Positions 4,289 to 31,952 of a stretch of DNA of 42,790 nt are shown in pieces (within the stretch, counting starts at the first letter, position 1; the number at the start of each line of letters is the position of its first letter). This stretch comes from Reclinomonas americana ATCC 50394. Lineage: Eukaryota. Location of the stretch: positions 80,190 to 122,979 of the forward strand of contig PS015136.1 in the NCBI GenBank assembly GCA_048213135.1, given 5' to 3'. The position numbers were made by a program, and so were the translations under genes. The notes under the pieces are model-generated. The model was not told the origin of the DNA, searched no databases, and saw only the letters and a program-made list of their open reading frames with translations.

Positions 4289-7068
4289 ATGGCCGTTGCC
4301 GCGCATGGATTGTTGCGCCTCTCTGCGACCGAGGTAATTTTGCGTTTAACACTGGCTTTCGTTCTTGTGTTTGTTTTGATTGTGTTTGTTGTTGTTTGCA
4401 GCTTTCGCATCATTTCCGGTCGACGTCGTCTGTGGTGAATGTGGTGCTTGCGGCGCATGCGGAGGCGCATCGGCATGTGCTTCCGCATGGATGTGCGGCG
4501 TATTTGAATGTGCGAGCGAGTGAATTGGTGGTGAAGGAGGCGGAGGAGGCGGCCAAGAGGATTGCGCGAGGTGAATGAGGCAAAGAGAGAGAGGAGAGGG
4601 TCTCGTTGTGTTTAGGCTTGCATTCTGCATGTTGATGAGCGATGATGGAATGCATCGTGTGTTGTTGTTGATCTTCTTCTTCTCCTCCTCCTTCTCCTCC
4701 TTCTTCTCCTCCTTCTCCTCCTTCTTCTCCNNNNNNNNNNNNNNNNNNNNNNNNNNNNNNNTCTCTCTCTCTGTAACCTTGGCTTTCTTCTTCAAGTTCT
4801 TGTTCTTCTTCTTGTTCTTCTTCTTCTCCTTCTTCTTCCTCTTCTTCTTCTTCGTCTTCTTCTTCTTCTTCTTCTTCTCCTCCTCCTCCTCCTTCTTGTT
4901 CTTCTTGTTCTTCTTCTTCTCCTTCTTCTTCCTCTTCTTCTTCTTCTTCTTCTCCTCCTCCTCCTCCTTCTTGTTCTTCTTGTTCTTCTTCTCCTTCTTC
5001 TTCCTCTTCTCCTTCTTCTTCTTCTCCTTGTTGTTGTTGTTGTTGTTGTCATTCTTCTTCTTCTTCTTCTTCTTCTTCTTCTTCTTCTTCTTCTTCTTCT
5101 TGTTCTTCTTCTTGTTCTTCTTCTTCTTCTTCTTCTTCTTCTTCTTCTTCTTCTTCTTCTTTTTCTTCTTCTTCTTCTTCTTCTTCGTCCTCTACTACTC
5201 CTTGCTTCTTATTCTTCTTCTTCTTCTTCTTCTTTATCTTCTTCTTCTCCCTCTTCTCCCTCTCCTCCTCCTCCTCCTCCTCCTCACCCCCTTCATCACC
5301 CCTTCATCACCCCCTTCATCCACCAACCAACAGGGCAACCGCTGAGCGCGCTCGACGGCGTGCCAGTGTGCATCAAGGACAACTTTTGCGTGCAGGGGCA
5401 ACCGACCAGCGCCGCCTCGCGAATCCTCTCCAGTTGCGCTCGCGCCTCGTCGGCCTCCTCCGACGCACTTGTCACTCACGAATGATGTGCGCAGAGTGGG
5501 TGGCGCCCTACACGGCCACGGCGTGCGAGAGGTTGCTGGTGGGTGGCGGCGCCGTGCTCATTGGCAACAATAATATGGATGAATTCGGCATGGGGTGTGT
5601 TCTCCTTCTGCCCCTCACTGTGCGCTCGTCAGCAACTCATCTCCTCCCCGCAGCAATGCTGGTGTGAATTCGGCCTTTGGGCCCACGCGAAATCCGCTCT
5701 CTGCCGATCTGGTGGCTGGCGGCAGCTCCTCGGGAACGGCCGCGGCTGTCGCGGCGCATACGGCGTTTATGTTGCGTGTGTGTGCTCCATCAACAAGGCT
5801 GCTGGGTGGCAAACTCACTTTTGATGTCGACGAGTAGAGGTCTGTGCAGCGACACGGGCGGCAGTGCGCGACAGCCGGCCGCCTTGTGTGGGCTCGTCGG
5901 TTTCAAACCCACGTACGGTCGCGTGAGTCGGCACGGTCTGCTGGCGTACGCCTCCTCGCTCGACTGTCCGTCGTTGATTGCGCGATCGGTGGCCGACGTG
6001 CGGGTGGCGTTTGGTGAGTCGCGCCTGCCTCACCTCCTTCCCTTCTCCTCTTCATGTCTCCTGGTGTCAGATCTCATCAAGGGCGCCGACGGCCTCGACC
6101 CCACATGCTACACTCCTGTCACGCCCAGTATTCCGCATCCGCTGCCGGCGACTGGCGGAAAACCACTCGACGGTCTCGTGGTCGGCATCCCGCTCGAGTA
6201 CAGCATCGAGGAGTTGTCGGCCGAGGTGCGCGCGGCGTGGGAGTCGGCGGCAATGCGTCTCATGAGTCTTGGCGCGACGGTTCGCCACGTGTCCCTGCCG
6301 CACACGCCGTACGCACTGGCGGCGTACTATGTGATTGTGTGCGCGGAGGTGTCGTCGAATCTGTCGCGTTTCGATGGCGTTCGATTTGGTGCGTACGGCG
6401 TTCTCGAGCAGCCGTCTCGTGCCTCTCCGTGCTCATTGGTTGTTGCAGGCTCCGCTCCCGTGATCGACGACGCCAAAGGCGACGCAGCGCCGCGCATGGA
6501 CTACACTCAATTCGCCAAGACCACGAGGTCGCAGGGCTTTGGGCCGGAAACCATCCGCCGCATTCTGGCCGGCACGGCTGTGCTCTCTGTCGAGTTGTGT
6601 TGTCTCTGATTTCCTTCGCGAGTACCGATGTCATCTCACCCTCCCCAACCCCATGGCGTGCAGTTCGTACGACGCCTTTTTCCGCCAGGCACAACGTGTG
6701 CGTCGGCTGGTGGCCGACGATTTTGGTGCCGTTTTCGCCACCGGCGATGAGCACGTAGATGTATTGCTGACGCCTGTGACACCGCGCTCCACCGTGTCTG
6801 TCGCCGATGCGGCGCGAGAAGCATCCTCGGATCCCACCCGAGGGTACGACTTTGACGTGTTCACGGTGCCTTCGAGCCTGGCGGGTGAGTGAGTGTTTTT
6901 CTGGCAAGTCCTCTTCCTGCATCGTCGTCATCTCTCTCTCGGCGATGTGCAGGATTGCCAGCGATCAGTGTGCCCACAGGAGGCACGCCAGTGGGCATGC
7001 AGCTGATTGGCCCGCGAGACAGCGATGAGTGGCTCCTGCAAGTCGCCGAGAGACTCACGTGCTCGTAA
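4289..7068 (+). CDS. QRSL1: Glutamyl-tRNA(Gln) amidotransferase subunit A (GatA/QRSL1, amidase signature family), multi-exon
   Basis: Spliced product contains LDGVPVCIKDNF, NMDEFGMG, GGSSSG, SDTGGSARQPAALCGLVGFKPTYGRVSRHGL, EVSSNLSRFDGVRFG, GFGPETIRRILAG, YDAFFRQAQRVRR, FTVPSSLAGLPAISVP and GMQLIG. The Lys-cisSer-Ser triad motifs are intact. ATG at 4289, TAA at 7066-7068. Confidence 0.95.
4671..5285. repeat. Long (TTC/CTC/TTG)n trinucleotide microsatellite in GatA intron 2
   Basis: Directly visible; lies within intron 4571-5333. Confidence 0.95.
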
Positions 7069-7118: not shown

Positions 7119-10100
7119 CTATTCGTCGTTGCTCTTGTGCGACGAGGCGCGAGGTAATCGCACCGCCAGCTCGCCGAGCAAGTTGCTGACGGGTCCCGCC
7201 ACACCCTCCTGAGCGGCCACAGACGACAGCAAGTTGTGCACAATATGCATGTCCATCTGCAACTCGTCCGGTAGTGCGTGCTCGTCTCTGTCTCCTCCAC
7301 CCGCCTCGTCTACATTGTCAAAGCGATCGAGCGACATGGCCGCCCCGAGCGCCTCCAGCTCGGCATCCATTTCGGCCATGACGTCGCGCAAACTCGGTTC
7401 CTCCTTGTCCCCGGTGTCGTCTGGCGCTGCGGCTGTTTCCGCCCCCTCCTCCTCCTCTCCGTCTTCGTCGTCCTCATCCGACGGTGGGTCTTCGAAATCG
7501 CCTGCTCTCGTGGTGAGCGGGGTGAAGGAACGGAGAGAAAAGCAGAGAGAAGGTAACGCAACTCGGATCAAAGAACCCATCCCACGGTTGCTGCTCATCG
7601 CGAATGCCAACAGCGTTCTTCAGCAGCGCGAACAGCTGCTCGACGTTGAAGTCCACGGGTTGACTGTGTGCACGCACATGTTCAATGAGACGGAGACTTC
7701 AGATCGCGAGCAGCATCGCTCCACACAGACCTGTCACCGACGGCCACATGCGGCACCTCCGCACCCTCGTGGCTCGACATGGCATCCATAAAGGCGCGCA
7801 TGCCCTTGGCCACATCGGCGGCCGATGTGCCATCGGCAGCAGTGGCAGCTGCAGGAGGGGCGGCACTGTGGCCGAGTGCCGGACCGTAGCGCGACATGAG
7901 TTTGTCGAGTTCGTCAATCGACAGCTCCATNNNNNNNNNNNNNNNNNNNNGATAGAGACATAGAGAAAGAGAGAGATAGAGAGAGAGAAAGAGAATGACA
8001 GGAGAACTCACCGCAGATAGGGTTCGGCGAATTGCTGCACCGCCGACGGGTCGGCTGCAAGCAATGCATCCACCTGGTCGGCAAAGTCCAGGTCTCTGCA
8101 GAGGGGGGAGGGAAGAATGAACAGGGGGAAAGAAAGGGGAGAGAGAGTACAAGCAGTCGACTCACCGGTGACTCTCTCCAACCGCAGCCTCATCGGTGAA
8201 CTCAGTCACCACATTCTGCACAAACTCGGCGCGCGCCTGCCTCTCCAACTCGCGATACAGCCGCGAGCCCTCCAACTCGCCGCGAAAGTAGCCGAGGCGA
8301 TGGAGACGCGCCTTGTAGGTTCGCCAGCGTGATTCTGTGGCGGCATCGAACTGCGACGAGTTGTAAGGCGCGGATAAGGAGCGCAAGTGGAATGAGCTTC
8401 TCTGCTCACCTCCACAACATCCGAGTCCCCGACCGCTCGAGTGGACTTGGAGCGGCGGCTCTCCTGGTACGCCATCTCAAACGCGCATGCCTGCACACCG
8501 CCAGTCAGCAACAAAGGTTTGTGCGCCTCGCGAGCCCACTCAGTACGAACCACACGCACGCCGACATCGTAGTGCCGGTGATGTTGTGCCAGCGGGAGAT
8601 CCGGGGGCATCACGAAAGGCTTGGGCGGGTGGAACGACTGCTGTACGAGTTGTGCGAATCGACAGCGCGTGAAGCGCACTGGGTACATGATTCGGTCGCG
8701 GCTTGGAGGGAAGCGTGACATGCTGACGCAGGCCTGAACAGAGGGAAGGGAGGATGAGGGAAGGGAGGAAGAGGGAAGGGAGGAAGAGGGAAGGGAGGAA
8801 GAGGGAAGGGAGGATGAGGGAAGGGAGGATGAGGGAAGGGAGGATGAGGGAAGGGAGAGGGATGAGCTCCTTTTTTTCTGCGTACTCGCTGGCCCACCAG
8901 TAACAGCAGTAATGACAGATGGAACGGACAGAGCGGGGAAGGAGCGCGCAAAGGTGGAGGCTAGAAGGGCAAGAAGGAACGGCAGAGGACGGAAGGAGAA
9001 GAAAGGTAAGGCATGCACCAAGGTAGGCTGTGTAGAGAGCGTGGAATGAGAGTGAGAACATGAAAGGTGAGAGGCGAGAAAATGAAAAGGTGGAGCGAGA
9101 ACGCAGAGATGGCAGTGGAGTGAGGTATGCACCAAGGGAGGCAATATAGAGACCGTGCAAGGAGAGTAAGAACACAAAAGGTGAGGGGTCAGGAAACGAA
9201 ACGGGTGGAGCGAGAACCCACGCACGCCGGTAGAGGGAATGAGAGGTATGCACCAAGGGAGGCAATGTACAGCCGTGCAAGGAGAGTGAGAGAGTATGAA
9301 AGGTGAGGGGCGAGGAAACAAAAGGGTGGAGCGAGAACGCGGAGATGAGGTATGCATCAAGGCAGACAGTGTTGTCGAAGACTGTTTCCCTGTCTCATCC
9401 ACCCACCTGCAATGCCGCTGGATCCCTCGAATAGAAACACTCAATGGCCCGACTAAGCAGCCGCGGCTGCGTGTGCGCGAGGAACGCCACGTCCACCGGC
9501 ACGAAGCAATTGAATACGTGCCGATTCTCCGCCAATGCATGCCCGGGAAACCTGACCACAGCACCCACTGTCAGACCCACACACAGACGCCACCCCCTCC
9601 GCCTCCACGGCTCACTCACCCGCTCAGTTTCTCGCGGAGTAATCTCTGCACGCCGTCAGGTAATCTGGTGCGCTTCGGCAGCGTTTTGATGGCCGCATAC
9701 GCTGCCGCCGGGGTGAGCGGCATTGACGCCGGCGGAATGATGCCGATCTCGCCCGGCGACGTGGGCCCCGGCGGCAAACAGTGCAACTCGCCCGCACACA
9801 GGAACGTGCGATCGTCGGCCACCTCCGGGTCGACCCACGTCGGCAGCTCGTCGGCCGTCTCAATCAACAGGAACTGCCCGTCATTATCGCGCACGACGCA
9901 CAGCACCTCGGGCAGGCGCACCGTCACCTCGCGCAGCACATACACAATCAACCACTCGTCCAGCACATTATCGCCAAAGCGCGAGCTGCCGTAGAGATGC
10001 ACCGGCGCCGCATCGGTCTCCGCCACCAGCACCAAGCGCAACGGATCCTGGTGCCACACATACTCCTCCCCGGCCTCCTGCTGCATCTCGTCGAGCAGAC

Positions 10101-10257: not shown

Positions 10258-11196
10258 TTCTCCTTCACCGACGCGACAGCAGCAACACAGAGAGCAGGTA
10301 GTGCAGGGCGTGCACGGCGAGGAGTCGGGAGTAGCGAAAGGCGTACTTGGTCGCCAGCACTAGATCCAGGAAGCCGCCCGAGGAGAGCACGAGGTCGCGG
10401 GTTTGCAAGGAGTCGGTGTCGCCTGGGGGGAAAGTGGAAGGTGAGAGGGGAAAGGGAGAGAAGGGGAAAGGAGGGAGGGAGAGGGCAAGGGGGAAGGTTT
10501 AGAGGGCGAGAGAAGCGAGAGCCTCTCTCTTTCTTTCTCTCTCTCTCTCTCTTACCTTCCTCCAACAAGGCGTGCTCGGAGACTCGTCGCCAGGCGCGCT
10601 TCTGAGCTGCAGCAAAGCGTCGGAAGCGATGTGGATCGTAAAAGGCCACTGATTGCAAAGCCTACAGAGAACATGTGAGAGAGTGAGAGAGAAGAGAGAG
10701 AGAGAGGGAGAGAGAGAGGAGAGAGAGGGAAGAAGAAGAAGAAGAAGACAGAGGGAGAGAGGAGAGAGAGAGAGAGAAAGAGCAAGGGTCCAGGAAGAGA
10801 GAGAAAATGCATGAGTAAACGTCGTCTTTCCTCTCCAAAAAAAAGCACGCGCATTCTCTCACGCCATGCACCTGATGAATCGGGTGCACAAGGCTCATCC
10901 ACAAGCCACACTGGCGCTCTTCTGTGAGGGGGAAAGCGTCAAAATGCAAGTGTCGTCCTCGTCCCACAACACTCTGACGCAATTGCAACAAACAACGAAG
11001 CGCAGAAGGTAAAAGAGCACACACAAAGAGAGAGAGGCAGAGTGAGAGAGAGAGAAGATGCGCGGAGAAGATTGCAATTTCAGTGTGGAAGAAGAAGAAG
11101 AAGAACATGCAGAGAGAGCTGCAGACTCTCACAGAACCTGCAATCTTGGTGCCACATTGACTGGGCACTCACTCACTCTCTCACTTTCTCACTCAG

Positions 11197-15983: not shown

Positions 15984-18900
15984 TCAATTGTCTTGTTGAT
16001 ACGAGCGAAAGTGCTGGCGGTACCTCGAGTCCAACGACCGCAAAGCGATAACGTGCGCATTTGGCGGCGTCAGAAGTCGCGGCCACTGTGGTAACAAAAG
16101 AGGCGGAAGAGAAGGTGGTGCACGAGCTTGCACCCTGTGAACCCGACGTTGAAGAAGCGCCGTTGCAGCAGGTATCAAGAAGGCGTGGTTTATCGAGGGT
16201 GTTGGAGGCATCATTGCCGGTGCATTTCCGTGCCCTGCGGTTGTTGGAGACTGCAACATCACACACACGCACGCGTACACATCAAAGTCGCAAGTCAACG
16301 ATGAGAATTCGATACGCGCTGAGCGCAGCAAACTTCCTGCATGCAATATTGTGCAGGTGCTCGAATACCCACTCACCAGACGCACAAAGGGATCCGGTAC
16401 TCGCGATTCCTGGTCGTCGAGGGAGCCGGGGTCGATATCGAGAAATCCAAACGGCTTGAGCGCAACGCTTGACGGCGAAGCGGCAACTTTCGCCGTAGAG
16501 AAATGCGAGTCTCGAAGATGTCGCTGCCTGCGCCTTCGCATAACAAGGCAGTACCAGGTGAGGAATAGTATCGCGGCTATCAGCACCACGCTGCCAACCA
16601 CAGTCCCGACAACCTGAAAGGAGACGAATTGGACTTTGTTAGCTAAAGACTCCATGGACGAGCTGTGTTCGTGCGCAGCGCAGACGTAAATGACAGAACG
16701 ATTCCGACAAGAGACGATGCAGGAGTAGCTGATGCATCGACGGCATCACTCGCTTGCGTTGCGCTGCTTCTGTCTGCTACCGACAGCAGACCACCGTTCA
16801 CTGGCACAGAGTTGGTGGTCGAAAAGTGAAGAATGCAGAGCAGGTATGAGCCGGCAGTCGGAACCCTTACTGTGGCGGAGGCCATCATGCCGTCCATGCT
16901 GACGCTTGTAATGGTGGCTAAAACACCAGTCGAAGCGGACGACGAGCAGCCGGCACCAGCCGATGCGACGAAAATTTGGTCCCTTACGTCAAGAAACGCG
17001 CCGGTGATGCTGACCACAGACAGACTGCCGGTCGTGACACTGGTTGGTGAAAACCCTGTTGTCGATTGAATCACTTCTACAGCGAAAGTTAGTGTCAACA
17101 AATCATGCACGTGCGCATGCGCAGCGGTTGCAATCAGCCCTATACGTGCCTTGGACCAGCAGAGTCCCGCCGAGCAGCGTCGCTGGTGTGCTCGCTCCAT
17201 ACTGGACGCAAACGTGGTATGAGCCGACGATACTTGCAGTCACCAAAACGGTCAAGCTGCTGCCGTCACTAGGGGCAGCTGTGCTTCCAATGACGAATCC
17301 TGGTGAAGATACAAAAGGACGTCAGTCACTACTTGTTGAGAAACGCAAGTAAAAGTTGGCACTTGCATGAAGCAAAATTATTGTCGACCTGCTGTACCTG
17401 GCGCACTGATCAATCCACAAGCAGTTCCCAACACAATAAAGACGGAGTGCGTTGACAACAGTCCAGAGCCGACCACTGACAAAACTGTCGCAGACTGGCC
17501 AATAATCAGAGTTGACGGTGTAAACGAAATTGCTTGCGGCAGCGCTCCCGCTGCGAAGGGCGGTATCTTTGAGTGCTACAGCAGCTTGAGAATCCAAGGA
17601 TCTAATGATCAACTGTACCTTCGGCGGTGAGGTAGCCACTTATGTTGATGACACCACTGGCGACGCTGGATGTAGAGAGGCACAATTTGTAACGCTGCAC
17701 GGCTTCCAGTCGTACCGAAAACTGCAGAAGAGTCCGAGTGTTCAACACCGAGAGAGTCGCTACACCGGCTACAGCTCCGCTAGTTGAATTACCGCCCGCC
17801 ACACACGGTGACGAGATATCCACAATCGACAGCACGTCACTGGCACGAAGACCAGTTCCAGTTACTGTAAGAAGGGTTCCGGGAATTCCCGTACCCATGG
17901 TGGTGGGGGAAAATGCAATCACAGTGGCGTCTGTTGAAAATGCGATCAGTATTAAGATCTTAATAAGCGCAACAATACACATATCATAAGGTCCGCCAAA
18001 GTGACACAACTTTCACCGAGAATAAATGTCTCGGTTAGTTCACCACCTGCTCCATCAGTCGCTCGCACTTTCAACTCCAAATTAGTGCCGACAAGGTCCG
18101 CGACCGCCGACTTGAGGACATATCCGGCGAGGCGGAACAGTCCGGCTGCCGCACCGCCGACAAGTGACAACGACACTGCCTGTGACACATTCGCATCAAC
18201 AGTCGAAAACGTCGCGACAGTGGCATCAAGGGCAAGGTGTGGCTGAAACAGAGTGTTGGATATGGTGATCGAGCTGGGCGCCACGTTGGCTGTGTCGTTT
18301 GCAATTGCAATACGCATTTAGTAGTGTGTTTTGAGGACATAAAAACTTACGATGTACATACCTTCTGCAATCGTGAGCGTTTGTGTCACCGACAGCGCTG
18401 GTGTGCCATTGTCTGTCGAACTGATGCTCGCGGTGATAGGACCAGTGACTCCGCTCGCAGTCAACGTCAACTGGTCACCATTGATAGCAAGAATACCCGG
18501 CGGAATGCTTAGAGCAATCGTATAAGTGAACGACTGTGCAGTATTGCCGTCCACTGTCGACAACGTTCCGATGACTGAATTTGCAACGCTGGGTGGCACA
18601 AACGTCAAAGCCGATAATGCGATGGCACTGGGCGCCAAGTTCACTGTTTGTCGAGTTGAACAAGCGAAGAGAATTAGGTGGTAACATATAACATCTCTGA
18701 CGTTCGAGCAACAGACGTAAATCTGTACCTTCCGTAATTAGGAACCGACTTGACACCGAGGCGCCAGCAGAGTCCACCGATCTCACAATCACTTCCAGTG
18801 GACTGCCACGCAATCCGCTGACCGCGCTCAGCAGCTGCGTGCCCGACACACTAAATTTGCTTCCGTCAGCTCCTCCCCCAATCGAGTACGTAAACGATTG

Positions 18901-21900
18901 GCAACAGTTGTCGTCCACGGTTGACAATGCGCCAATTGGAACGCCGACTCCAAGGGGTGGCGAGTACGTCTGAAGTGACAAACTCACCGCCGTTGGTTGC
19001 ACGTTTGCTACCGGTACCGTGTGAAATTAAACATGTCGTCAGCAATTTTGTAGCGGCTAGCCATACGCGAGTTGCTTCTCTCCGTAAACATACCTTCACT
19101 AAATGTGAATGTTGCAGACGCAATACCGCCCGCACCGTCGCTTACAGTAACAGTGACTTGTAAATTGTTGCCAGTGAGGTTCGCCGCCACAGTGCGAAGC
19201 TTCAAGTCCGCTCCTAGTGAAAAGAGGGAAGCATTCGCGCCACCCGTAATTGAATACGTCAGAGTCTGACCAATGTTTGCGTCCGTGGCACTGACAGTTC
19301 CGAGAACGGTATTCATGACACATGGTACGCGATATACGTTGTCAGCAAGCCCCGCGACAGCGTTGGTGAATGTGAGGTTCGCTGGCGTGGCATTGGCTAT
19401 TATGCGTGAGCACGATGAGTGAACACGCCAATAAGGCAGGTACTGTTGTTTTGCTCATTGCAGCAAACCTTCGGTGACTGTGAAGGATTTCTCGGTGAAG
19501 AGTCCACCGGAGTCCGTGCTGCGGACCACCATGGACAGCGTGCCAGACTGACTATTGATCTTAATGTTCAGCGACGAACCAACAATGGTGACAGAGTTGC
19601 TCGGCGAGCTAGATCGGATTGTGTAGACAAACGAGTCACTGGCGTTTGCGTCCGTGGTAGACAGCAGTCCGATCACAGTATTTGCAGTCACGGGCGGCAA
19701 ATACGTCGTTGCCGAGAGCGCAATGTCTGTTGGCGCTACATTGACTGCGCAGGCAGCTTGAGACTTAGTCGCCAAGATAGATTCAGTGCACAGAACCACG
19801 CGCAACAGATGTCCGTACCCTCTGTCAGCATGAATGTAGTCAATGCGCCCGAGCCCTGATTGTTGCCAACCTGCACAGTCACCGACCGCGTGGGCCCCGT
19901 GACGCCTGCAGACGATCGAACTACAAGCTTGTTGCCCTGCATGGCAAAGAGGGCTCCGTCGAATCCAGACGACACTCTGAAATACGCCGTTGCAGGGTCG
20001 CATGCTGACAGGGGAATACTGACTGGAGTTGCGATACTCGGTGGAAATGACCAGCGCACTTGGACGAAGTCAACGCCCGTTTGCTCCTGTACACATTCAC
20101 AACACGATGCGAGTACGAGTGGATACAATGTAAATGCGTGACTCGAGCGCAGAATCACACAGTCGACCGACCTTGTGCCGAACTTGGAGGAGAATAACTT
20201 GTCCAGCGGTGAAGCTGAATGAGCTGGACTGTTGCGAGGGGTACTTGCTAAAGTTGCCAACAGTTGTGGAGGAATTCGGCGGGACACCGGCAACTTGCAC
20301 CAAGTCATTCGAGTCGGATGTTGTGCTCAAGAATAAAGCAGTCTCCTCGTCCCCAGCCACCCAGAACTGTTGAAGAGCAAGTGAACTCCCAATGCAGGCT
20401 TATCTTGTCAGGAAAAAGACGCAACAACGTATGTGTTCGTCGCCGGAATTGTAACGTATGCTGTCAACTGGGAAGCATAGTTGTCTGGGCACGATTGTGA
20501 TTGAGTTTTCGAGCTCACAGCACTTCAGGTGACGGTGTACGTACCTCCATCATTCGTCAGGAATTCGAACGGATTAGAAGACGAGAGAAGAGCTAGATTG
20601 CTTGTTGACGTACTGAGCGGCACAGACGCAAAGTCGGCACTTGCAATGTTCGGACCGTAAAGAGTTTCCCATCTTTCACGCAGCACACCCTTCGCAGTGG
20701 TGGGCGAACGAAGAGAGTTACCACTGTATGCATAAGAGACCTGGCAGGTCATTCATCGATGTCAGTTCAGCAGGTACAGATCATCTACATGAAAATTTCC
20801 TTCCATGTTTCAAACACACCGTGCCTATTAGTGACGGCGCGATGGCGCCAGGAATAAACGTCGAACTGCTGAGAGCCACGCCGCTGAATAGATTAACCTA
20901 CAGTTTTCCAAGTGCGTGTCAGCGACGCGCCTCCAATTGAATGAGCGCATGTAGCGCTGCGCAGTGCTGAGTATTTGTCGTGCCACTCACCGACTGGGAG
21001 ACGCTGAAAGCCAATCCGTTGGAATCTGTTACTTCGATAGTGATGGGGAATGTCCTCGCCGAAGGAGTGGCGGTTGCAATCAGTTGGTTTCCACTGACAA
21101 TGATCGGCTGGCCAGAGTCTGATAACAATTTATACGTGTACGACTCGCAGCAGTTGTCATCGCGAGCCTGGATTTCCGAGATGACGAATGGATACGATGA
21201 TGCTGGGACTGGAAAGTCGCGATTCAGCAGGCGAACATTCCAGCCCTCAACAGGAGCTGCGAACAAGCACATCGAAACTCTGAGTAGGAAATCGACAAAA
21301 TCGACGCAAGCAGACGTCGACACTATAACCGAGCTCACTTTCTGAAAATGTGTACGACACTGAAGTGAGTGTGCCACTGAGATCGTCACCCTCGACAGTC
21401 ACCTCGAGGGTGGGATTCATCGTCATAGGGTCACCTCGTAATCCACCAAGCTGATTCGCTTGAAGCTTGTTACCCGCAACAAGGAACTTGGCCTGCAGGA
21501 ATCGCACTGTTGAACAGCCAAGTTCCCTAGTGCAACACGGGCAGAAGAGCACACACCGCATGCATTCCACCAGTAATTTTCCACAGAACGACGCCGACCA
21601 GACACTGTGAAGCTGGAATAGTGGTAATAGCGTTGCTGCCGTACTGCCATCCCAAGCTGTCGTTTGGAGAGAGACATTAATTTCAACAGTGAACGATCAG
21701 AGTCAACACAATGACGGGAGTTCACTTGGTTTCTTTTCGAGCCTCGGTTAAAGCAAGACCCGAGCGAGAGAGACAAAAACTTCCAATAGTGAAGATAATG
21801 CAAAAGCAGATAACGTAGAAGCCAAAACGACCGTAGTCGCCGTGACCTGTATTGCCAATGGCCGCACGTAGCACACCACCATCGAGGNNNNNNNNNNNNN

Positions 21901-24900
21901 NNNNNNNNNNNNNNNNNNNNNNNNNNNNNNNNNNNNNNNNNNNNNNNNNNNNNNNNNNNNNNNNNNNNNNNNNNNNNNNNNNNNNNNNNNNNNNNNNNNN
22001 NNNNNNNNNNNNNNNNNNNNNNNNNNNNNNNNNNNNNNNNNNNNNNNNNNNNNNNNNNNNNNNNNNNNNNNNNNNNNNNNNNNNNNNNNNNNNNNNNNNN
22101 NNNNNNNNNNNNNNNNNNNNNNNNNNNNNNNNNNNNNNNNNNNNNNNNNNNNNNNNNNNNNNNNNNNNNNNNNNNNNNNNNNNNNNNNNNNNNNNNNNNN
22201 NNNNNNNNNNNNNNNNNNNNNNNNNNNNNNNNNNNNNNNNNNNNNNNNNNNNNNNNNNNNNNNNNNNNNNNNNNNNNNNNNNNNNNNNNNNNNNNNNNNN
22301 NNNNNNNNNNNNNNNNNNNNNNNNNNNNNNNNNNNNNNNNNNNNNNNNNNNNNNNNNNNNNNNNNNNNNNNNNNNNNNNNNNNNNNNNNNNNNNNNNNNN
22401 NNNNNNNNNNNNNNNNNNNNNNNNNNNNNNNNNNNNNNNNNNNNNNNNNNNNNNNNNNNNNNNNNNNNNNNNNNNNNNNNNNNNNNNNNNNNNNNNNNNN
22501 NNNNAAAACGCAGGGAGGAGAGAGGAGAGAGAATGGAGATTCACGATCCAGCGCTTAATTCCGGAAGCAATGCTCTCATGCAGGCGAACATGCTCCAGAT
22601 AATGACGGTGCCACCACGGGTGCCGCGCCACCCTCCGTCGTCTCAAGCAATCGACAAGAGACAGACCCCGCATTCAGAAGCGAAGGTCAAGCGCTGAACC
22701 GCAAACCCACATCCCTCGCAACCACCACACAAGCGAACCAAGAGATGACANNNNNNNNNNNNNNNNNNNNGTTTGGGTGGATGCGAAGGAGCTGCCTCTC
22801 TACCTCGTCTTTAATTCTCCATCGTGTTTCTCTTTCTTCTCTATTGAGCTTCCTGCATGTGTGTGTGCGAGGTGCCTCTGCAACATCTGCGTCTTTCTTT
22901 TGATCGAGTTTCCGCTGTGTTGTATGTGTTAAGGGGAAGGGTTAATGCGTAAGAGTGAGACGGGTAGTTTGCGCTATGTGGTGGGAGAGTCTGTGTTATG
23001 ACTTGTGACAACTTTGCGATATTTCTTATTTGTATTTCGCTATTTCTTGCCTTTGCTGTGCCACTTCGTTTGTTGGCGCTTGTCTGCTGTCANNNNNNNN
23101 NNNNNNNNNNNNNNNNNNNNNNNNNNNNNNNNNNNNNNNNNNNNNGGCCGGGTTGCACCACACAGCCATTCCTCCGGACTCCTCCCAACACCACCACTCC
23201 ACTTCCGACAGTGCCACCAATTGCAACCAACACGTGCAACAATTGCAAGCAGTACAAGTAACGGTCGACGACGCAAAGAAAGAGAAAAACGGCAGTGTTG
23301 ACTCAAGACGTTCACAAACCGGGTGGGAGGGAGGGCTCAACAGGAAAGAAAGTGAAAAACAAGAGGAGTGTGTAAGACTCCGATCGTATTTTCACTTTAT
23401 GAAACCATGATATTCCAACAGTGGAAATCTGGATTNNNNNNNNNNNNNNNNNNNNNNNNNNNNNNNNNNNNNNNNNNNNNNNNNNNNNNNNNNNNNNNNN
23501 NNNNNNNNNNNNNNNNNNNNNNNNNNNNNNNNNNNNNNNNNNNNNNNNNNNNNNNNNNNNNNNNNNNNNNNNNNNNNNNNNNNNNNNNNNNNNNNNNNNN
23601 NNNNNNNNNNNNNNNNNNNNNNNNNNNNNNNNNNNNNNNNNNNNNNNNNNNNNNNNNNNNNNNNNNNNNNNNNNNNNNNNNNNNNNNNNNNNNNNNNNNN
23701 NNNNNNNNNNNNNNNNNNNNNNNNNNNNNNNNNNNNNNNNNNNNNNNNNNNNNNNNNNNNNNNNNNNNNNNNNNNNNNNNNCAACAGTGAACGATCAGAG
23801 TCAACACAATGACGGGAAAGATCTGGAAACAACAAACAAAAGAAATTGATGACAAAAGCAGGAGTGTGAACATAAAAACAGTGAACACGAAGCACATACA
23901 CCACATGCACTATCCACTGTACATAAACCCGAATCACTACACAGACACGATTCAAGCCCACCCCCACTACACAGGCCACGCACGACACAAACAAACACAG
24001 AGTACGTCACTTAGCCATCACAAATGACACAGTCGTCTGGCCCATCGTCCACCGCCGTCGCCTGCTCGAGGGGACGAACACGCGAATAGACGGCGGCAAA
24101 CACCTCAGCCACAAGCCGCCCCGGTGGTGGCACATCATTTCTGATGTACAAACGATGAGTATCGTCAGACTTCCACCCAGCCACCGAGTTCAGCTGCGTA
24201 GCTTCTACACCAAGCGCGTTGGCGGCCGTAGCCCCACCGCACGTGGATGGGGTAGTATACGTACCCCGCTTGCCTCCAAGCTCCTCCTCACCACCCTCGT
24301 CGCTGGGTTCTTCGTCGTCTTCGGTGACGAACTCCACATCCTCCTTGGTCATGGCCTTGCGCGCCTGCACACGCTTGCCCCTGCCATAGTCATCTTGCTG
24401 ATCCAGCGGCGCTGAAAGGCCGTCGTAAAGCCTCTTGGACATGGATGATGTGGTTGACTGTTGTCTCTCTCAACAGGAAAGAAAGTGAAAACGGCGCTGA
24501 AAGGCCGTCGTAAAGCCTCTTGGACATGGATGATGTGGTTGACTGTTGTCTCTCTCAACAGGAAAGAAAGTGAAAAACAAGAGGAGTGTGTAAGACTCCG
24601 ATCGTATTTTCACTTTATGAAACCATGATATTCCAACAGTGGAAATCTGGATTATACTTTTCACATTGCTGATGTTGTCGACGCGCAGCGCGCGCACGCG
24701 CGTCGCTGCAATTCGTCTGCGTACCTTACATGAGCGGTTGCGCCACCAGGTCCACGCTATGTATGTAGCACCGCAGAGAATGAGCGTTCCCAAGAATGTG
24801 GTTGTGTGAAGATTGATACGCAGCGAAAGGGAGTGGGCAGTTACCTTGTGCAGCACTTGTACAAGGATCACTTGATTGATCACGAGAGAATATGTCGGAG

Positions 24901-25940
24901 ACGCCGTGGTAGGGACTGGGTTCCACCTGCTGCAACATCAACAAAGCATCGCATTCGCAAACTCCGCACTGTAACGTAACGAAGGGTTTCCATTGGCCAG
25001 CGCAGACACTACACTGACAACTTTGACAAGATCGGCTGCGTCGCCGGTGAGACTGATGTACAGGTCGCACGAGTCGGCACAAGTGATGTAGAACTGAGAA
25101 GAGATGTTGTGAGTAGGCAGCTGGCGCAGCGATGTGAGTACATGCATAAAGTGGGCAACGCACAGTGTACGAGTTGTCAGTGGGTATGGTGACGAATGTG
25201 GTGAGGCGAGTCGAAGAGTTACCTGCATGTACAGCGCACAAGTACGCACGCATGCGTAAAACCGCATGTGACTGTAAGTACCAGAACAGAGACGCCGAGC
25301 GCTACGACATGTTCACGTGCAATGTGACGCACTAGCTGTGGCCGAGTATGCAAATGACGTCGTCAATGGGAAGCAAGACGTCGCCGCCGTCGAAAAGCTG
25401 TTCAAGTGCGGTCGAAATTAGGGCTAAGTGGTGGATGCTCACATTTCGAAATGTATATGCCGACCCTATGCATGTGTGCCCCAGAGCGTAACTCAGCATT
25501 TGACACAGACGACCCAGGTTGACCAGTCCAGCGTTCCGCCAGGACTCCAGAGGTGGTAGCCGACACACTTGATCGACAACCCGTTACAGTTCGCGACAGC
25601 TGCGCAAGCGCTCTCGTGAGTCTGGGGTGCCATACATTCGACTCAAGGCTTGAGCGCACAGCCAGTCCGCAACAGTGGTGAGCGTGGACCGCACTGCAGA
25701 GTACGGCATGAACGACAATGCGGTTGTCGCTCCTGTTGCAAGTTCAATGAAATGATCAGAACATGCATATGCACAAGCAGCACGTACGCGTACGCGTGCT
25801 ACTGTTGCCCATTAAGCATCGCAAGTTAACGCACCTGCGCCTCTTCCAGTCAGCACGACTATGCATGTGCACATCGCGAAGGCCAGCGCAAGACATGTAC
25901 AAAGAGCGTCTGCAGCACGACTGCGCATGCGCATGCGCAT
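15984..25940 (-). CDS. Large type-I membrane adhesin-like protein: signal peptide, ~8 cadherin-like repeats (two interrupted by PA14 domains), 3 IPT/TIG-like domains, TM helix, cytoplasmic tail
   Basis: Signal-like exon (ATG ~25940, ...LCTCLALAFAMCTCIVVLTG). Repeats follow NxAPxxIxLS...IGxLSTxDxN...FTYxI...FxxxGxxL...VxxTDxGG, mostly one per exon. PA14 motifs GVLRERW, DNYASQLTAYVTIPATNTYVFWVAGDEETALFLST and FSKYPSQQS...LQVRHKEQTGVDFVQVRW. IPT-like FSPT...LTVTGTGL occurs three times. TM GTVVGSVVLIAAILFLTWYCLVM is followed by RRRR. The termini are less certain than the domains. Confidence 0.8.
21684..21719 (+). repeat. Element left-end repeat, copy 1 (36 bp, identical to 23782-23817)
   Basis: CAACAGTGAACGATCAGAGTCAACACAATGACGGGA occurs twice. 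Confidence 0.95.
23336..23435 (+). repeat. Element right-end repeat, copy 1 (100 bp, identical to 24554-24653)
   Basis: CTCAACAGGAAAGAAAGTG...TTCCAACAGTGGAAATCTGGATT occurs twice. Confidence 0.95.
24011..24442 (-). pseudogene. 143-aa ORF: acidic N-terminal segment fused to a tyrosine-recombinase C-terminal remnant
   Basis: YTTPSTCGGATAANALGVEATQLNSVAGWKSDDTHRLYIR resembles the YR motif (H-S-x-R)-xGGATAA...GV...GxWKSD...YIR. The HxxR is degenerate and the upstream catalytic Arg region is missing. Confidence 0.6.
24407..24576. repeat. Perfect 85-bp tandem duplication inside the element
   Basis: 24407-24491 equals 24492-24576; it duplicates the ORF start and part of the right-end repeat. Confidence 0.95.
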
Positions 25941-26401
25941 GGTGAAGAGCTCCACTTGCTGTTGGAGTCCGACGCACAGGCAAACACTGATAGCACTGCA
26001 GCGCGAACGAGTGCAGAAAAGTTCAGTGAGTTCGCGCATGCGCAGCGCAGAGCGCGCTCTGCAGACACGTGAAACAATTGGGCTGCGAACACACTCTGTG
26101 CACGCACGTTTGTGCTGTGGTGGGGCTTCAACTCCGCGCTCCAGCAGCTGACGAGGCAACGATCTCTCCAAGGAGTCGCACAACAGTGGGGGACGCAGTG
26201 CGAGCCGTTGCGATATTGATGATGTAAAAATTGTATCCGGTTTGTCGCCTGACGCAGCGCTGCTTGCAGGTGTGTACGCGTTGAATTCGCAGGAGTAGTT
26301 TTTACGCGGCAGCGGAGTCTCAAGCTCACACTGTGTGCCCTTGTGCATGATCTCCTGCTGGTCCTGTCCCACATGCATCTTCTGTCCTCTTCAATTCGCG
26401 A

Positions 26402-26770
26402 ATGGGCTTCCTCCGCTCCTTCTTTGCCGCCATGCTCTCCCTCCTCGTGGCCGCACTGGTCACCTCTGCCGTCGAATCCGTCAACACCACCGTGCTGTTC
26501 CCGATGCCCGAGGAAGTCGCCCGCGTCATGACCGAGCTGCGCACACAACACACCGATCTGGCCATGGACAAGCTGCGCGAGTGGATCGCCACACTGCCGG
26601 CACTGGCCCTGTGCATTGTGTTGGTGGGGCATGCAGCTGGTGCCAGTGCAGCCGGCCTCACTCTGCGGTGGGTGGCGCCCGGCAGCTCCGCCTACTTTGG
26701 ACTGTTGCCGGTGCTGGTGTTGGTCATTGGAGGTTGGTGTGCATGCAGGAATCTTGATCCTCTTTGGTGA
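26402..26770 (+). CDS. Small hypothetical membrane/secreted protein
   Basis: ATG-initiated ORF with a signal-like N-terminus (MGFLRSFFAAMLSLLVAALVTSA), two further hydrophobic segments and GC3-rich codons; no recognisable family; 3' end uncertain. Confidence 0.45.
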   Translation: MGFLRSFFAAMLSLLVAALVTSAVESVNTTVLFPMPEEVARVMTELRTQHTDLAMDKLREWIATLPALALCIVLVGHAAGASAAGLTLRWVAPGSSAYFGLLPVLVLVIGGWCACRNLDPLW

Positions 26771-26859
26771 TCCGCGCTCATCTCCACGCAACAGCGGTGA
26801 CCATGATGCGCATGCTGCCGCATCCGTGGTGGTTCTTGGCCATTGATTTCCCCCTGTAT

Positions 26860-28115
26860 CCACTCTGCGTGTTTGGCTTGATGAGATCACGCGCTGCACG
26901 ACCATTGCCACCACCACCACCTCCCCGCGCAGACAAGACAGAGTGACGTCTCTCTCTCTCTCATTGTAGCGTCTTCTGCGACCACTCAACATGCATTCCT
27001 GCAGACGTGAGAGGTTCTTTCTTGACCACTATCCCTTGTGGATTGACTTTGCGCTCTTTGGCGTGATGGGAGCACGCGCAAGGCCGCCACCTCCACCACC
27101 TCCTCGCGCAGACGAGACAGATTGAGTTGTCTTCCTCTTGCATTACTCCTCCCGTATGATTCGGGCTCCTCCGTCGTCGTCGTCTTCTTCGTCGTCAGCT
27201 CTTCTTCTGCTTGCTGTAGTTGTTGTTCTTCTTCCTCTCCCTCACTCTTCTCTTTGGCCACGGTCGCGCGCAATGCCGCCACCACCACTACCACCTCGAG
27301 CAGACAAGACAGACTGACTTCCCTAGCATCCGACGTCTTCTGCATCCGCTCAACATGCATTCCTGCAGACGTGAGAGTTGTTCCTTTCTCTGCTCTCTTG
27401 GTCACTATCCCTTGTGGATTAACTTTGCGCTCTTTGGCGTCATGGGAGCACGCGCAAGGCCGCCACCTCCGTCTCCTCGCGCAGACAAGTCAGATTGACT
27501 TCCCTTGCTTCCCTCGTCTTCTGCATCCGCTCAACATGCATTCCTGCAGACGCGAGAGGTTCTTTCTTGATCTTCTCTCTACTTTCTTGGCCACTATCCC
27601 TGGTGGATTGACTTTCCGCTCTTTGGCGTGATGCGATCACTTGCAAGGCCGCCACCACCTCTGCCTCCTCGCGCAGACAAGATAGATTGACTTTCCACTC
27701 TGTTTCGTGCTTCCGTCGTCTTCTGTCTGCATCCACAGCCACTTATACCTCATCCTCTCTTGCTTCGTTTGCTCCTCTCCTCTCTCATGACCACCATCCT
27801 TGACATTGCACTGTTTCCACTCTGCGTGTTTGGCGTGATGTTATCGCGCGCTCCACGGCCACCACCACCTCGAGCAGACAAGACAGACTGACTTCCCTAG
27901 CATCCGACGTCTTCTGCATCCGCTCAACATGCATGCAGACGTGAGAGGTTCTTTCTTGTTCCTTTCTCTGCTCTCTTGGTCACTATCCCTTGTGGATTGA
28001 CTTTGCGCTCTTTGGCGTGATGGGAGCACGCGCAAGGCCGCCACCACCTCCGTCTACTCTCGCAGAAAAAAACAGATTGGCTTCCCTTGCTTCCCTCGTC
28101 TTCTGCATCCACTCT
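26860..28115. repeat. Degenerate tandem array, ~7 units of ~180-200 bp
   Basis: Marker GCAGACAAGACAGA-TGAC (with variants) near 26928, 27108, 27300, 27481, 27672, 27874 and 28062; CTCAACATGCAT at 26985, 27349, 27530 and 27923. Confidence 0.85.
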
Positions 28116-28217: not shown

Positions 28218-31200
28218 TCATCTCCTCATGGGCAGGGGAGAGAGAATAGACGGCAGCTGCTCCATCGTCTCCTTCTCCACATCCCGTCGGGGGTCGAGGA
28301 ACTCGTTCAGCGACGGCAGAGAAATGCTGGGCTGCGAGTGCATGAAAAGGCAAATTAGCAACGGCACTCTCCTTCTCCCTCCCTTTTCAGCAGCACTCAC
28401 CATGAGGAGCAGCACGGCTGGCAATCCGAAACGCGCAAACGAGAGACCAATCAGCCACTCGTTGCGGGCGGCGTGGTTCTCAAACATAATGTCGACGGTG
28501 CGAGAGTCGGTGATCACGCTGAGGCACAAATCCTCGCCTGCGCGCGCGCACAACTGCGATTGAGTGACACAGAACGACAGCACAGGCGCTTTCACAATTC
28601 GACACGCAACTCTTGTCAAGGTCCTGACGGATGCGGCGATCGCCCTTCAGCGTCGGCGTCTGCACACCGGCGGCCACGTGCCAGATGGAGGCCAGCGCAA
28701 TGGAGCTGTTGAGGGACTTGGCTGAGGAGCCCCACTGCAGCTGCTTGCCGTCGTCGGACAAGCGGAAGAATCGGCGGTGCGGCTTGGAGTGGCGACTGAA
28801 AATGTACTTGGTGAGGACGGCGCCCTGCTTCACCGACTGCACCGCGCGACTCGCTGCGGCCTCGGCATGCGCGGCGCGGCGGCTCTCCAGCACCTGGCTG
28901 AGTTGAGTGCGACGCATCTCCGCCTGTTCCATGAAGAGTGAGTGAGCATGACAAGAAAACTACAACGAAAACAACAAGTGCAGACTCACCCTGAACAGCG
29001 CCGGCGCACTGGCCATCGTGCCCGAGGCGACCACGTCACCGGTGCGCGCCGAAAGGGGTCCGCCAACCGGACCAGTGCCAGCCAGCGCCACGCCGGAGGC
29101 GGCAGCGGCGCCTGCGCGCATCTCACGCTCCACCGTCGGCACGTGCTCCTCGTGCACGACCACACGCGAGGCCAGCGGCTTGGCCATTTGCGCGTAGCCC
29201 TCGTGTTCCTTGGTGATCATCACATTGTCGTTGGTGGACTGCGAGTCGTCGGCCGTGTTGTGGCTGGCACACTGGCCGGGAGTGATCCACAGCATCAGCT
29301 CGCCCTCCATAGAACCCAGTGGCGAAGCGCCGGTCGCCGTCGGCGCGTCCTTCTTGGCATCGCCGTGGTCGCCACCAAAGTCAGTGGCGTCGTGCTCCTC
29401 CTGCTGCTGCGCAGGAGCCTGCGAGAGGCCAATGGAGCAGGCCTCCTCCTCCTGTTCCCTCGACGATTCCACCACCACATCTGACTTGTCGGTCGCGGTG
29501 GCGACCGGCGTCTCAACGGCGCTGTGCTGCGACGTCGGCAGAGACTCGGCGACCAGATCGTCGCCGGTGGATGCAGTCGCGTCTTCGCCCTCCATAGCCA
29601 TTGCCTGCTCCTCCTCCTCCTCCTCCTCCTCCTCGTCACCGCCCTCTGAGCGTGAGCCCTCCGGATCGAGCTCGTCGTGCGTGTTGTTGTCGGTGGCGGG
29701 GGCGGGGGCGGGGGCGGCTGGTGGAGCCTCGTCGACCTCGACAACCGGTGCGACTGCCTGTGCCGCAGTGGCTGCTGCCGCTGCTGCTGCTGCTGCCGCC
29801 GCCGCAGCCGCCTTGGCCTGTTGCGCGGCAAGGTTCTTGGGAATGGGCAGAGGCTGCGCATGTTTAGCAGGATGAGAACGGGAGAAACATGAAAACATAA
29901 ACTTTGTGCAGGCCACTGTCTCACCTTGCCCACTCGCTCGTCGTCCGTGGCCAGCAGTTCGAGACCAAAGCTGCCCTCGCTCACCTCGCCCTCGTTGTTC
30001 TCCAGGCTGCGCGGAATGTCGAGAGTGCTTCCAGCCGCCGGGTGATTGCTGAGCTCGGCGGCCAGGATCTCCTGCTGCTGCGCCACGCGGCGCACGTCAC
30101 GAAACACACTCGTCAGTGCCACGGAAATGGGCACTGGCGTGTTTCGGCCGGCGTGCAGCACCGGCTGTACTTCTGGCGACGGACCCGTGACAATGAACGA
30201 GGCGAGCAGGAGGCGACATTCGGCCAGCGCCTGCTTGTCGTTCTGGCTCAGCATGCCAATGAGGCGGGCGTTTGACTGCGCCGCCAGCACGGCCTCGTCG
30301 CACGAGCTGTCGTGGCTGTCGGAGCTGGCCATGAGGCCGCGAACTTGCACTGTGGCCGGCGGGAATTCGTACACCTGCAAAGGGGAGAAGCGGTGAGGCA
30401 GTGAAGAGAGGGGGCTTACGCAGCACAAACAAACACACACCGTTGTCACGCCACGACCGGCGCTGGAGCTGCTCGTGTCGTCGGCGCGCTGGCTCGTCGC
30501 CTTTTGCTGGGCGACCTCGTTGACGAATGTGTACTTGCGCAGGCGGTGGCCTTGCACGCGCTCGTTGAAGTTGCGCTTGGGGGAGGACTAAAGAGGGGAA
30601 GGGGCGGTGAGGGGAAGGGGGAAAAGGCGGTGAGGAAAAGGGGGAAGGAGGGAAATTTCAAGGAGGGGAAGGAGGGAAAGGAGGGAGAAGGANNNNNNNN
30701 NNNNNNNNNNNNNNNNNNNNNNNNNNNNNNNNNNNNNNNNNNNNNNNNNNNNNNNNNNNNNNNNNNNNNNNNNNNNNNNNNNNNNNNNNNNNNNNNNNNN
30801 NNNNNNNNNNNNNNNNNNNNNNNNNNNNNNNNNNNNNNNNNNNNNNNNNNNNNNNNNNNNNNNNNNNNNNNNNNNNNNNNNNNNNNNNNNNNNNNNNNNN
30901 NNNNNNNNNNNNNNNNNNNNNNNNNNNNNNNNNNNNNNNNNNNNNNNNNNNNNNNNNNNNNNNNNNNNNNNNNNNNNNNNNNNNNNNNNNNNNNNNNNNN
31001 NNNNNNNNNNNNNNNNNNNNNNNNNNNNNNNNNNNNNNNNNNNNNNNNNNNNNNNNNNNNNNNNNNNNNNNNNNNNNNNNNNNNNNNNNNNNNNNNNNNN
31101 NNNNNNNNNNNNNNNNNNNNNNNNNNNNNNNNNNNNNNNNNNNNNNNNNNNNNNNNNNNNNNNNNNNNNNNNNNNNNNNNNNNNNNNNNNNNNNNNNNNN

Positions 31201-31952
31201 NNNNNNNNNNNNNNNNNNNNNNNNNNNNNNNNNNNNNNNNNNNNNNNNNNNNNNNNNNNNNNNNNNNNNNNNNNNNNNNNNNNNNNNNNNNNNNNNNNNN
31301 NNNNNNNNNNNNNNNNNNNNNNNNNNNNNNNNNNNNNNNNNNNNNNNNNNNNNNNNNNNNNNNNNNNNNNNNNNNNNNNNNNNNNNNNNNNNNNNNNNNN
31401 NNNNNNNNNNNNNNNNNNNNNNNNNNNNNNNNNNNNNNNNNNNNNNNNNNNNNNNNNNNNNNNNNNNNNNNNNNNNNNNNNNNNNNNNNNNNNNNNNNNN
31501 NNNNNNNNNNNNNNNNNNNNNNNNNNNNNNNNNNNNNNNNNNNNNNNGGGGGGAGAAGGGGGGAGAAGGGGGGAGAAGGGGGGAGAAGGGGGAGAAGGGG
31601 GAGAAGGGGGGAGAAGGGAGGGGAAGAAGGGGAAGGGGTTACGAGGGACGGTGGGAAGGAGGGAGAGGGAAGAGGGTACAGAGAAAGAAGAGAAGGAGGG
31701 GAAGGAGAAGAAGGAGGGAAAGGAGGGTGAAAAGAGAAGGAAATGAGAAAAAGAAGAAAGCAGACGAAGAACAGAAAGGAGGAGGGCACGAGACAACGAA
31801 AGGAGAAGACATGCAGGCAAATAGAGAGAATAAGAGACGAGTCCACACAGCAGAGAGGCGCACTGAGAAGACAGCAAGGACTGCTCAGTAAAAGAGCGCA
31901 GGTAAACAGAGACATGTAAAATGAAGACAGAGGAGATGCAGACATGATGACT

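Follow-up and report, generated by a model that had tools for sequence, protein, structure and literature searches.

The minus strand of one scaffold of Reclinomonas americana ATCC 50394 carries an open reading frame (ORF) of 143 amino acids that ends like a tyrosine recombinase and begins like nothing related to one, which raises the question of what this frame represents. The stretch analysed, hereafter the window, comprises 42,790 nucleotides (nt) of contig PS015136.1 (assembly GCA_048213135.1, positions 80,190 to 122,979), and the ORF (P0001) occupies positions 24014..24442, with its ATG at 24440-24442 and a TAA at 24011-24013. An earlier note, made from the letters of the sequence, had read it as the catalytic end of a tyrosine recombinase fused to an acidic N-terminus. 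The recombinase ancestry of the tail is borne out by the comparisons described below. The ORF is probably a remnant, truncated and catalytically inactive, of a mobile-element recombinase gene, the tail of which lies by chance in frame with unrelated sequence.

A phmmer search with the ORF against 1,835,955,588 representative proteins returned four matches at an expectation value (E) of <= 0.001, only two of which, P0003 and P0005, are credible. P0003 (334 residues) is matched with an E of 1.3e-8 (ORF 67-137 on P0003 251-320), and P0005 (372 residues) with an E of 9.2e-4 (ORF 61-133 on P0005 276-349). In both proteins alike, the end of the ORF pairs with the C-terminal end of the protein. The homologous segment (24014..24238, minus strand; ORF residues 69-143, with its strongest core at 24086-24238) reaches approximately the C-termini of P0003 and P0005, and the TAA is therefore probably the recombinase gene's own stop. 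A tblastn comparison of P0003 with the window gives 26 identities in 51 residues at 24238-24086 (E 6e-13), all remaining segments having E >= 1.6, and P0005 finds the window with an E of 2e-9. Out of 1137 pieces from the six frames of the window, a profile of the two proteins matched the ORF alone (E 7.2e-17; runner-up 2.2). As judged from these alignments, the similarity of the tail to P0003 and P0005 is far beyond chance. The 33-residue peptide given by the earlier note is the exact minus-strand translation of 24140-24238, and in the longer interval 24140-24262 it is preceded by TYTTPSTC.

The other two phmmer matches, P0002 and P0004, were rejected. Both are tandem-repeat proteins with scores that are inflated by summation over units which, taken singly, match weakly (24-26 bits, 27-35% identity). 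The 58-residue repeat unit of P0004 (731 residues) aligns across the junction of the acidic and recombinase parts (ORF 51-101, 19/54 identities); a single unit is not significant, and the resemblance is probably due to chance. Also rejected was a bacterial ORF from a metagenome-assembled genome (L001, 3001-3033), in which an 11-residue string is identical at 10 of 11 positions to the segment of the ORF running from W to Y, with no further similarity. It was the only one of 15 pattern matches to pass in a scan of prokaryote genomes, and pattern scans over 596 gigabases return chance strings.

The nature of the tail depends on that of its full-length relatives, which come from other public assemblies and not from this genome, P0003 being encoded on a contig of 5538 nt and P0005 on one of 5148 nt. 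P0003 and P0005 align end to end with 26% identity (E 3e-23) and share, in P0003 numbering, R134, K162, R248-S-L-R251, W274 and Y283. Their alignment was compared by hhalign with Cre of phage P1, using the translated cre coding sequence of the phage P1 record; the Cre residue numbers used here agree with a count back from the C-terminal end of that translation. The match extends over 259 columns (Cre 63-336) with 24% identity, a probability of 82.7% and an E of 9.6e-6, and places the LLR containing the first catalytic arginine (Arg-I), the catalytic Lys, the H/RxxR box with its second Arg, GW with the Trp and YxR with the Tyr in register. The relatives differ from Cre in reading RSLR where Cre has HSAR, with an Arg in place of His289.

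Searches of structural and family libraries point in the same direction. Of the PDB sequences listed, 17 of 19 for P0003 (E 0.015-0.044) and 17 of 17 for the two-sequence profile (E 0.064-1.8) are Cre or Tre, while P0005 alone finds neither in the PDB. The PHROG integrase family phrog_1 is matched by P0005 (E 4.1e-5, residues 23-319) and by P0003 (E 0.0042). In Pfam, P0003 matches only Phage_int_SAM_1, with an E of 0.0029 that lies under the curated cut-off, and NCBIfam gives nothing useful, its only match being XerD (E 0.1). The AlphaFold2 models of the two proteins are poor, with predicted local distance difference test (pLDDT) values of 36.3 and 42.1. For the poor P0005 model, Foldseek finds no match at E <= 0.001; the 32 matches that it lists are all tyrosine recombinases and are headed by Cre (E 1.3e-3, template modelling (TM) score about 0.25). 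Eukaryotic Phage_integrase clusters are the Atlas neighbours of P0003 (score 0.98), which is taken as a lead only. On sequence grounds, the assignment of P0003 and P0005 to the Cre-like tyrosine recombinases, remote as it is, is well supported.

The family formed by these two proteins is rare and apparently eukaryotic. Word-indexed protein searches found nothing with the ORF, only P0003 itself with P0003, and only the two proteins with their alignment. None of the 492 and 553 pattern matches from two scans of metagenome contigs was confirmed, nor was any of 159 pattern matches in viral contigs. The ORF thereby points to a very sparsely sampled Cre-like lineage, with two full-length relatives among 1.84 billion representatives, that is set apart by the replacement of HxxR with RSLR and by its lack of a match to PF00589. 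The earlier note had looked to PF00589 and to a longer genomic homologue with intact catalytic residues for its support. The ORF, like P0003 and P0005, fails to match PF00589 even at E <= 10, but the other public assemblies do contain longer homologues in which the R-K-RxxR-W-Y set is intact.

Two of the residues expected at the active site are retained in the tail, as the earlier note had recognised. The Trp codon (W90, 24173..24175, minus strand) is in register with Cre W315, and the Tyr codon (Y99, 24146..24148, minus strand) with the nucleophile Y324; both residues are invariant in the alignment of the ORF with P0003 and P0005. An alignment of the tail that includes the ORF matches Cre 286-337 by hhalign (E 5.5e-4, probability 30%), again with W and Y in register, and the string Y-I-R-N is common to the ORF tail and Cre. 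At the site of the RSLR of P0003 and P0005, equivalent to Cre H289-R292, the ORF reads PSTC (CCA TCC ACG TGC, 24239..24250, minus strand); aligned as PS-TC, it has one residue fewer and both Arg are gone. The destruction of this box had been noted correctly; the ancestral motif had been given as HSxR, whereas the two nearest relatives have RSLR. By way of P0003 and P0005, and on this transitive evidence, the tail is taken to be a descendant of the tyrosine recombinase superfamily.

The rest of the enzyme is missing. No segment corresponding to Arg-I (Cre R173) was found by tblastn or profile in the ORF or in the six frames of the window, the profile found no catalytic Lys (Cre K201) there either, and neither method found a recombinase N-terminal domain in any frame of the window. 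Cre residues 1-288 have no equivalent in the ORF, which retains W and Y and lacks four defining catalytic features. Because the N-terminal domain, Arg-I, Lys and (R/H)xxR are all missing, the ORF product is predicted to be unable to cut or rejoin DNA. The possibility that the tail is the last exon of a split recombinase gene was considered and rejected, as the window contains no other recombinase piece and, on reading, no acceptor composed of a pyrimidine tract and AG lies just upstream of the GGA at which conservation begins.

The N-terminal 60 residues (24263..24442, minus strand) are acidic and unrelated to the recombinase, with 17 Asp or Glu, 13 of which fall within the 26 residues 32-57. 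The junction of the motif with an acidic N-terminus, as described in the earlier note, is therefore present. Its further proposal, that this half stems from the first ORF of the parent element, is not supported: phmmer found no relative of the N-terminal half among the representatives, and the first 12 residues share M, DGL and P with the start of P0003 at a level reached by 482 of 5000 shuffles, which is not significant. Nor is the similarity of the first 66 residues to the upstream parts of P0003 and P0005 significant, with 367/2000 and 944/2000 shuffles, respectively, reaching the score. The ORF is overlapped by a stop-free frame of 162 codons on the opposite strand, and the window holds 54 ATG-initiated ORFs of at least 150 residues. 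A length of 143 codons is unremarkable for this window and is no evidence of a gene. On the 3' side of the stop, reading of the sequence reveals a 193-nt stretch (23818..24010) that is GT-rich on the minus strand, in which no feature was identified; this stretch may represent the former element's 3' untranslated end.

These observations would be accounted for by the following course of events. The starting point would be a mobile element of the Crypton or DIRS/Ngaro type that encodes the recombinase, or a copy of its gene. The rest of the recombinase gene would have been lost through a deletion or rearrangement with its edge directly before the GGA, and the surviving last ~75-80 codons would now continue the frame of an unrelated acidic stretch that provides the ATG. 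The 143-codon ORF would then be a by-product, and not a working gene, in a genome rich in such ORFs. We infer on this basis a mobile-element origin, a truncation event and a lack of function. Truncated remnants of recombinase-encoding elements are to be expected in eukaryotic genomes, and as a relic the ORF matters little by itself.

With respect to the type of the parent, Cryptons are eukaryotic elements with terminal direct repeats of 4-6 bp that encode only a recombinase, of about the size of P0003 and P0005 (PMC3212892). In the DIRS, Ngaro, PAT and VIPER-like retrotransposons the recombinase has an ORF to itself, and degenerate copies are frequent (PMC6681497). The surroundings of the ORF differ from such elements in having no reverse transcriptase (RT) or RNase H in the scanned ORFs and no inverted terminal repeats around the block that contains the ORF. 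These negative results apply to the window, and the parent could still have been of this type. Crypton-derived introns have also been reported (PMC12130899).

Several observations weigh against a remnant of this kind. The main one is the preservation of the tail, which a relic would leave unexplained unless the truncation were young. P0003 and P0005 agree at 25 columns from the GGA on, of which the ORF retains 16, compared with one of four just upstream of it. Over the core of 51 columns its identity to P0003 is 51% and to P0005 43%, these two sharing 37% with each other, and its 75 tail codons contain no stop or frameshift. Such preservation fits a very young truncation and fits selection on the tail equally well. 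A codon model places the frame of the ORF highest of the three (0.11 per codon, versus -0.23 and -0.42), with log-likelihood ratios per codon of 0.36 for residues 1-58, similar to host genes, and of -0.06 for the recombinase part; the model is crude and was trained on a small set of five genes of the window. A mobile-element origin receives no support from the window, where no terminal repeats, second copy, RT or RNase H were found. The ORF alone has no family match in Pfam (to E <= 10), PHROG or NCBIfam, and a profile of the tail alone retrieves no recombinase from the PDB, its two matches both being PDZD7 (E 0.33 and 1.4). As these direct tests are negative, the membership of the ORF in the superfamily rests on transitive homology. 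Finally, the assembly around the ORF is doubtful, as set out further below.

The negative results on the surroundings derive from a Pfam scan of 12 ATG-ORFs, of 130 stop-to-stop frames of at least 70 residues in 13.5-34.8 kb, and of 96 frames of at least 95 residues elsewhere in the window. None of the scanned ORFs yielded an RT, an RNase H, a transposase or another recombinase piece, and no recognisable exon closely flanks the ORF, the nearest recognisable domains lying at 19011-19454 and 28483-28959. There are few convincing coding segments between 13 and 28 kb. These surroundings lend no support to the intronic position that the earlier note gave to the ORF.

The earlier note proposed a different origin, an internally deleted derivative. 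In this reading the ORF belongs to a non-autonomous element that keeps both ends of an autonomous parent, whose recombinase mobilises it in trans. Crypton boundaries are hard to define, and short non-autonomous derivatives that retain only the two ends of the parent are described by Kojima and Jurka (2011; PMC3212892). The example given there, CryptonI-1N1_RPro, has 438 bp at the 5' side and 260 bp at the 3' side in common with its autonomous parent, and the block with the ORF (23818-24553), at 736 nt, is similar in size. The abrupt edge of conservation at the GGA is compatible with a deletion junction, four runs of N within 2 kb suggest repeated sequence that is hard to assemble, and the first 12 residues of the ORF resemble those of P0003. 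This resemblance, however, is no better than that of many shuffled sequences, as noted above. Apart from its exact flanking repeats, the block has no second copy within the window, and no direct or inverted terminal repeats that would define an element were found (with no inverted repeat pair in 21000-27000). We consider an internally deleted derivative unlikely.

Alternatively, the ORF may be an exapted or chimeric small gene, in which an acidic 5' part of host-like character has been fused to the tail of the recombinase and the two encode an expressed 143-residue protein that binds DNA or the recombinase, for example as a regulator. The well kept tail, the open frame and the codon scores are what would be expected of such a gene. 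On the minus strand, moreover, the 100-nt exact repeat 'B' (24554..24653) ends in a pyrimidine tract and AG, 26 nt before the ATG. Domesticated Crypton recombinases that have lost the catalytic tetrad exist, namely the DUF3504 proteins (PMC3212892), and DUF3504/Phage_integrase clusters are the Atlas neighbours of the ORF (0.88), again a lead only. DUF3504 (PF12012) resembles the ORF in being recombinase-derived and in having lost most of the catalytic tetrad, according to the same paper. In DUF3504, however, the recombinase fold is complete and there is conservation across species, whereas the ORF has only the last ~80 residues. The ORF has no match to PF12012 or to any other family at E <= 10 in Pfam, and the protein searches revealed no orthologue or paralogue among the 1.84 billion representatives besides the two full-length recombinases. 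Judged by its sequence, it is not a member of DUF3504. As known domesticated forms keep the entire fold and an ORF of this size is unremarkable in the window, exaptation appears distinctly unlikely.

The assembly provides another explanation, in which the recombinase tail is genuine sequence of this organism but was joined to the acidic part, or put in its present place, by the assembler or gap closer. The true locus would then contain a complete gene or be situated elsewhere. Gaps are frequent in the window, which has 13 runs of N and about 55% G+C. The ORF block is flanked by two exact repeats. The 36-nt repeat 'A' (23782..23817) starts exactly at the end of a run of N and has its other copy at 21684-21719, and the 100-nt repeat 'B' has its other copy at 23336-23435, which ends exactly at the run of N at 23436-23781. 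A second segment of ~1.6 kb with three runs of N is bounded by the same 36-nt and 100-nt repeats, and the run of 346 N separates the two segments. The paired segments look like two alternative assembly paths, either alleles or repeat variants, placed in series, and a true tandem arrangement is also possible. In addition, an exact 85-nt tandem duplication in two copies (24407..24576) covers the ATG and the first 12 codons of the ORF together with 49 nt upstream. Its unit holds the pyrimidine tract and AG and, after a leader of 26 nt, the ATG with 12 codons, and the upstream copy opens a 45-residue ORF at 24525-24527. The duplication may have arisen very recently or may be an artefact of gap closing. 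With exact repeats that abut runs of N and an exact tandem duplication alongside, the assembly in this region is doubtful.

The homology break itself (24239-24262) nevertheless lies at least 145 nt from the duplication, in uninterrupted sequence, with no N between 23782 and 30692. The PSTC also keeps a trace of RSLR, with the S retained and similar flanks, as would be expected of a mutated genomic copy. A junction created in assembly has, in our estimate, a low probability.

A more far-reaching proposal is that the ORF is expressed as a mini-protein, in which a C-terminal Cre-like module, made up of the Trp, the helix that bears the Tyr and the tail, is fused to the acidic part. It would regulate the full-length recombinase, or poison it as a subunit, in an undescribed family of eukaryotic elements with Arg in place of the His of HxxR. 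The C-terminal tail of Cre packs against the neighbouring subunit. If the proposal were true, the mini-protein would be the recombinase counterpart of truncated transposase repressors; we regard it as very unlikely. That the motif is a chance resemblance and is not derived from a recombinase is extremely improbable, for although the ORF alone finds no family library entry, the tail profile no recombinase structure, and the 11-residue string in an unrelated bacterial ORF illustrates that short strings recur, the match extends over 70 residues with an E of 1.3e-8 against 1.84 billion proteins and of 7e-17 in the window, occupies the same C-terminal position in P0003 as in P0005 and has W and Y in register with Cre.

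The remainder of the window contains genes that are split between frames. SGT1 is distributed over three minus-strand frames, an amidase over two and a mitochondrial carrier over two, and a KH/BBP gene is also present. On the minus strand, open frames tile 15987-21696 almost continuously, and this region may constitute a single large gene interrupted by short introns or by frameshifts. Its segment at 19011-19454 matches the Pfam family Big_9, a bacterial Ig-like domain, with an E of 9.1e-5. An ATG-ORF begins directly after the 36-nt repeat, at about 21680.

On the other side of the ORF, self-BLAST reveals a diverged internal repeat array at 26854-28114, with 69-75% identity at offsets of ~180-900 nt and overlapping ORFs that have no Pfam match. 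Many strand-asymmetric purine/pyrimidine micro- and minisatellites occur, at 2521-2671, 4785-5257, 8741-8857, 10677-10782, 31548-31638, 41430-41601 and 42178-42393. The types encountered in the window are GA, TTC x157, GGGAGAGA and C/T-rich 13-63-mers. Some of these satellites lie within apparent introns, in the mitochondrial carrier gene, for instance, between repeats two and three.

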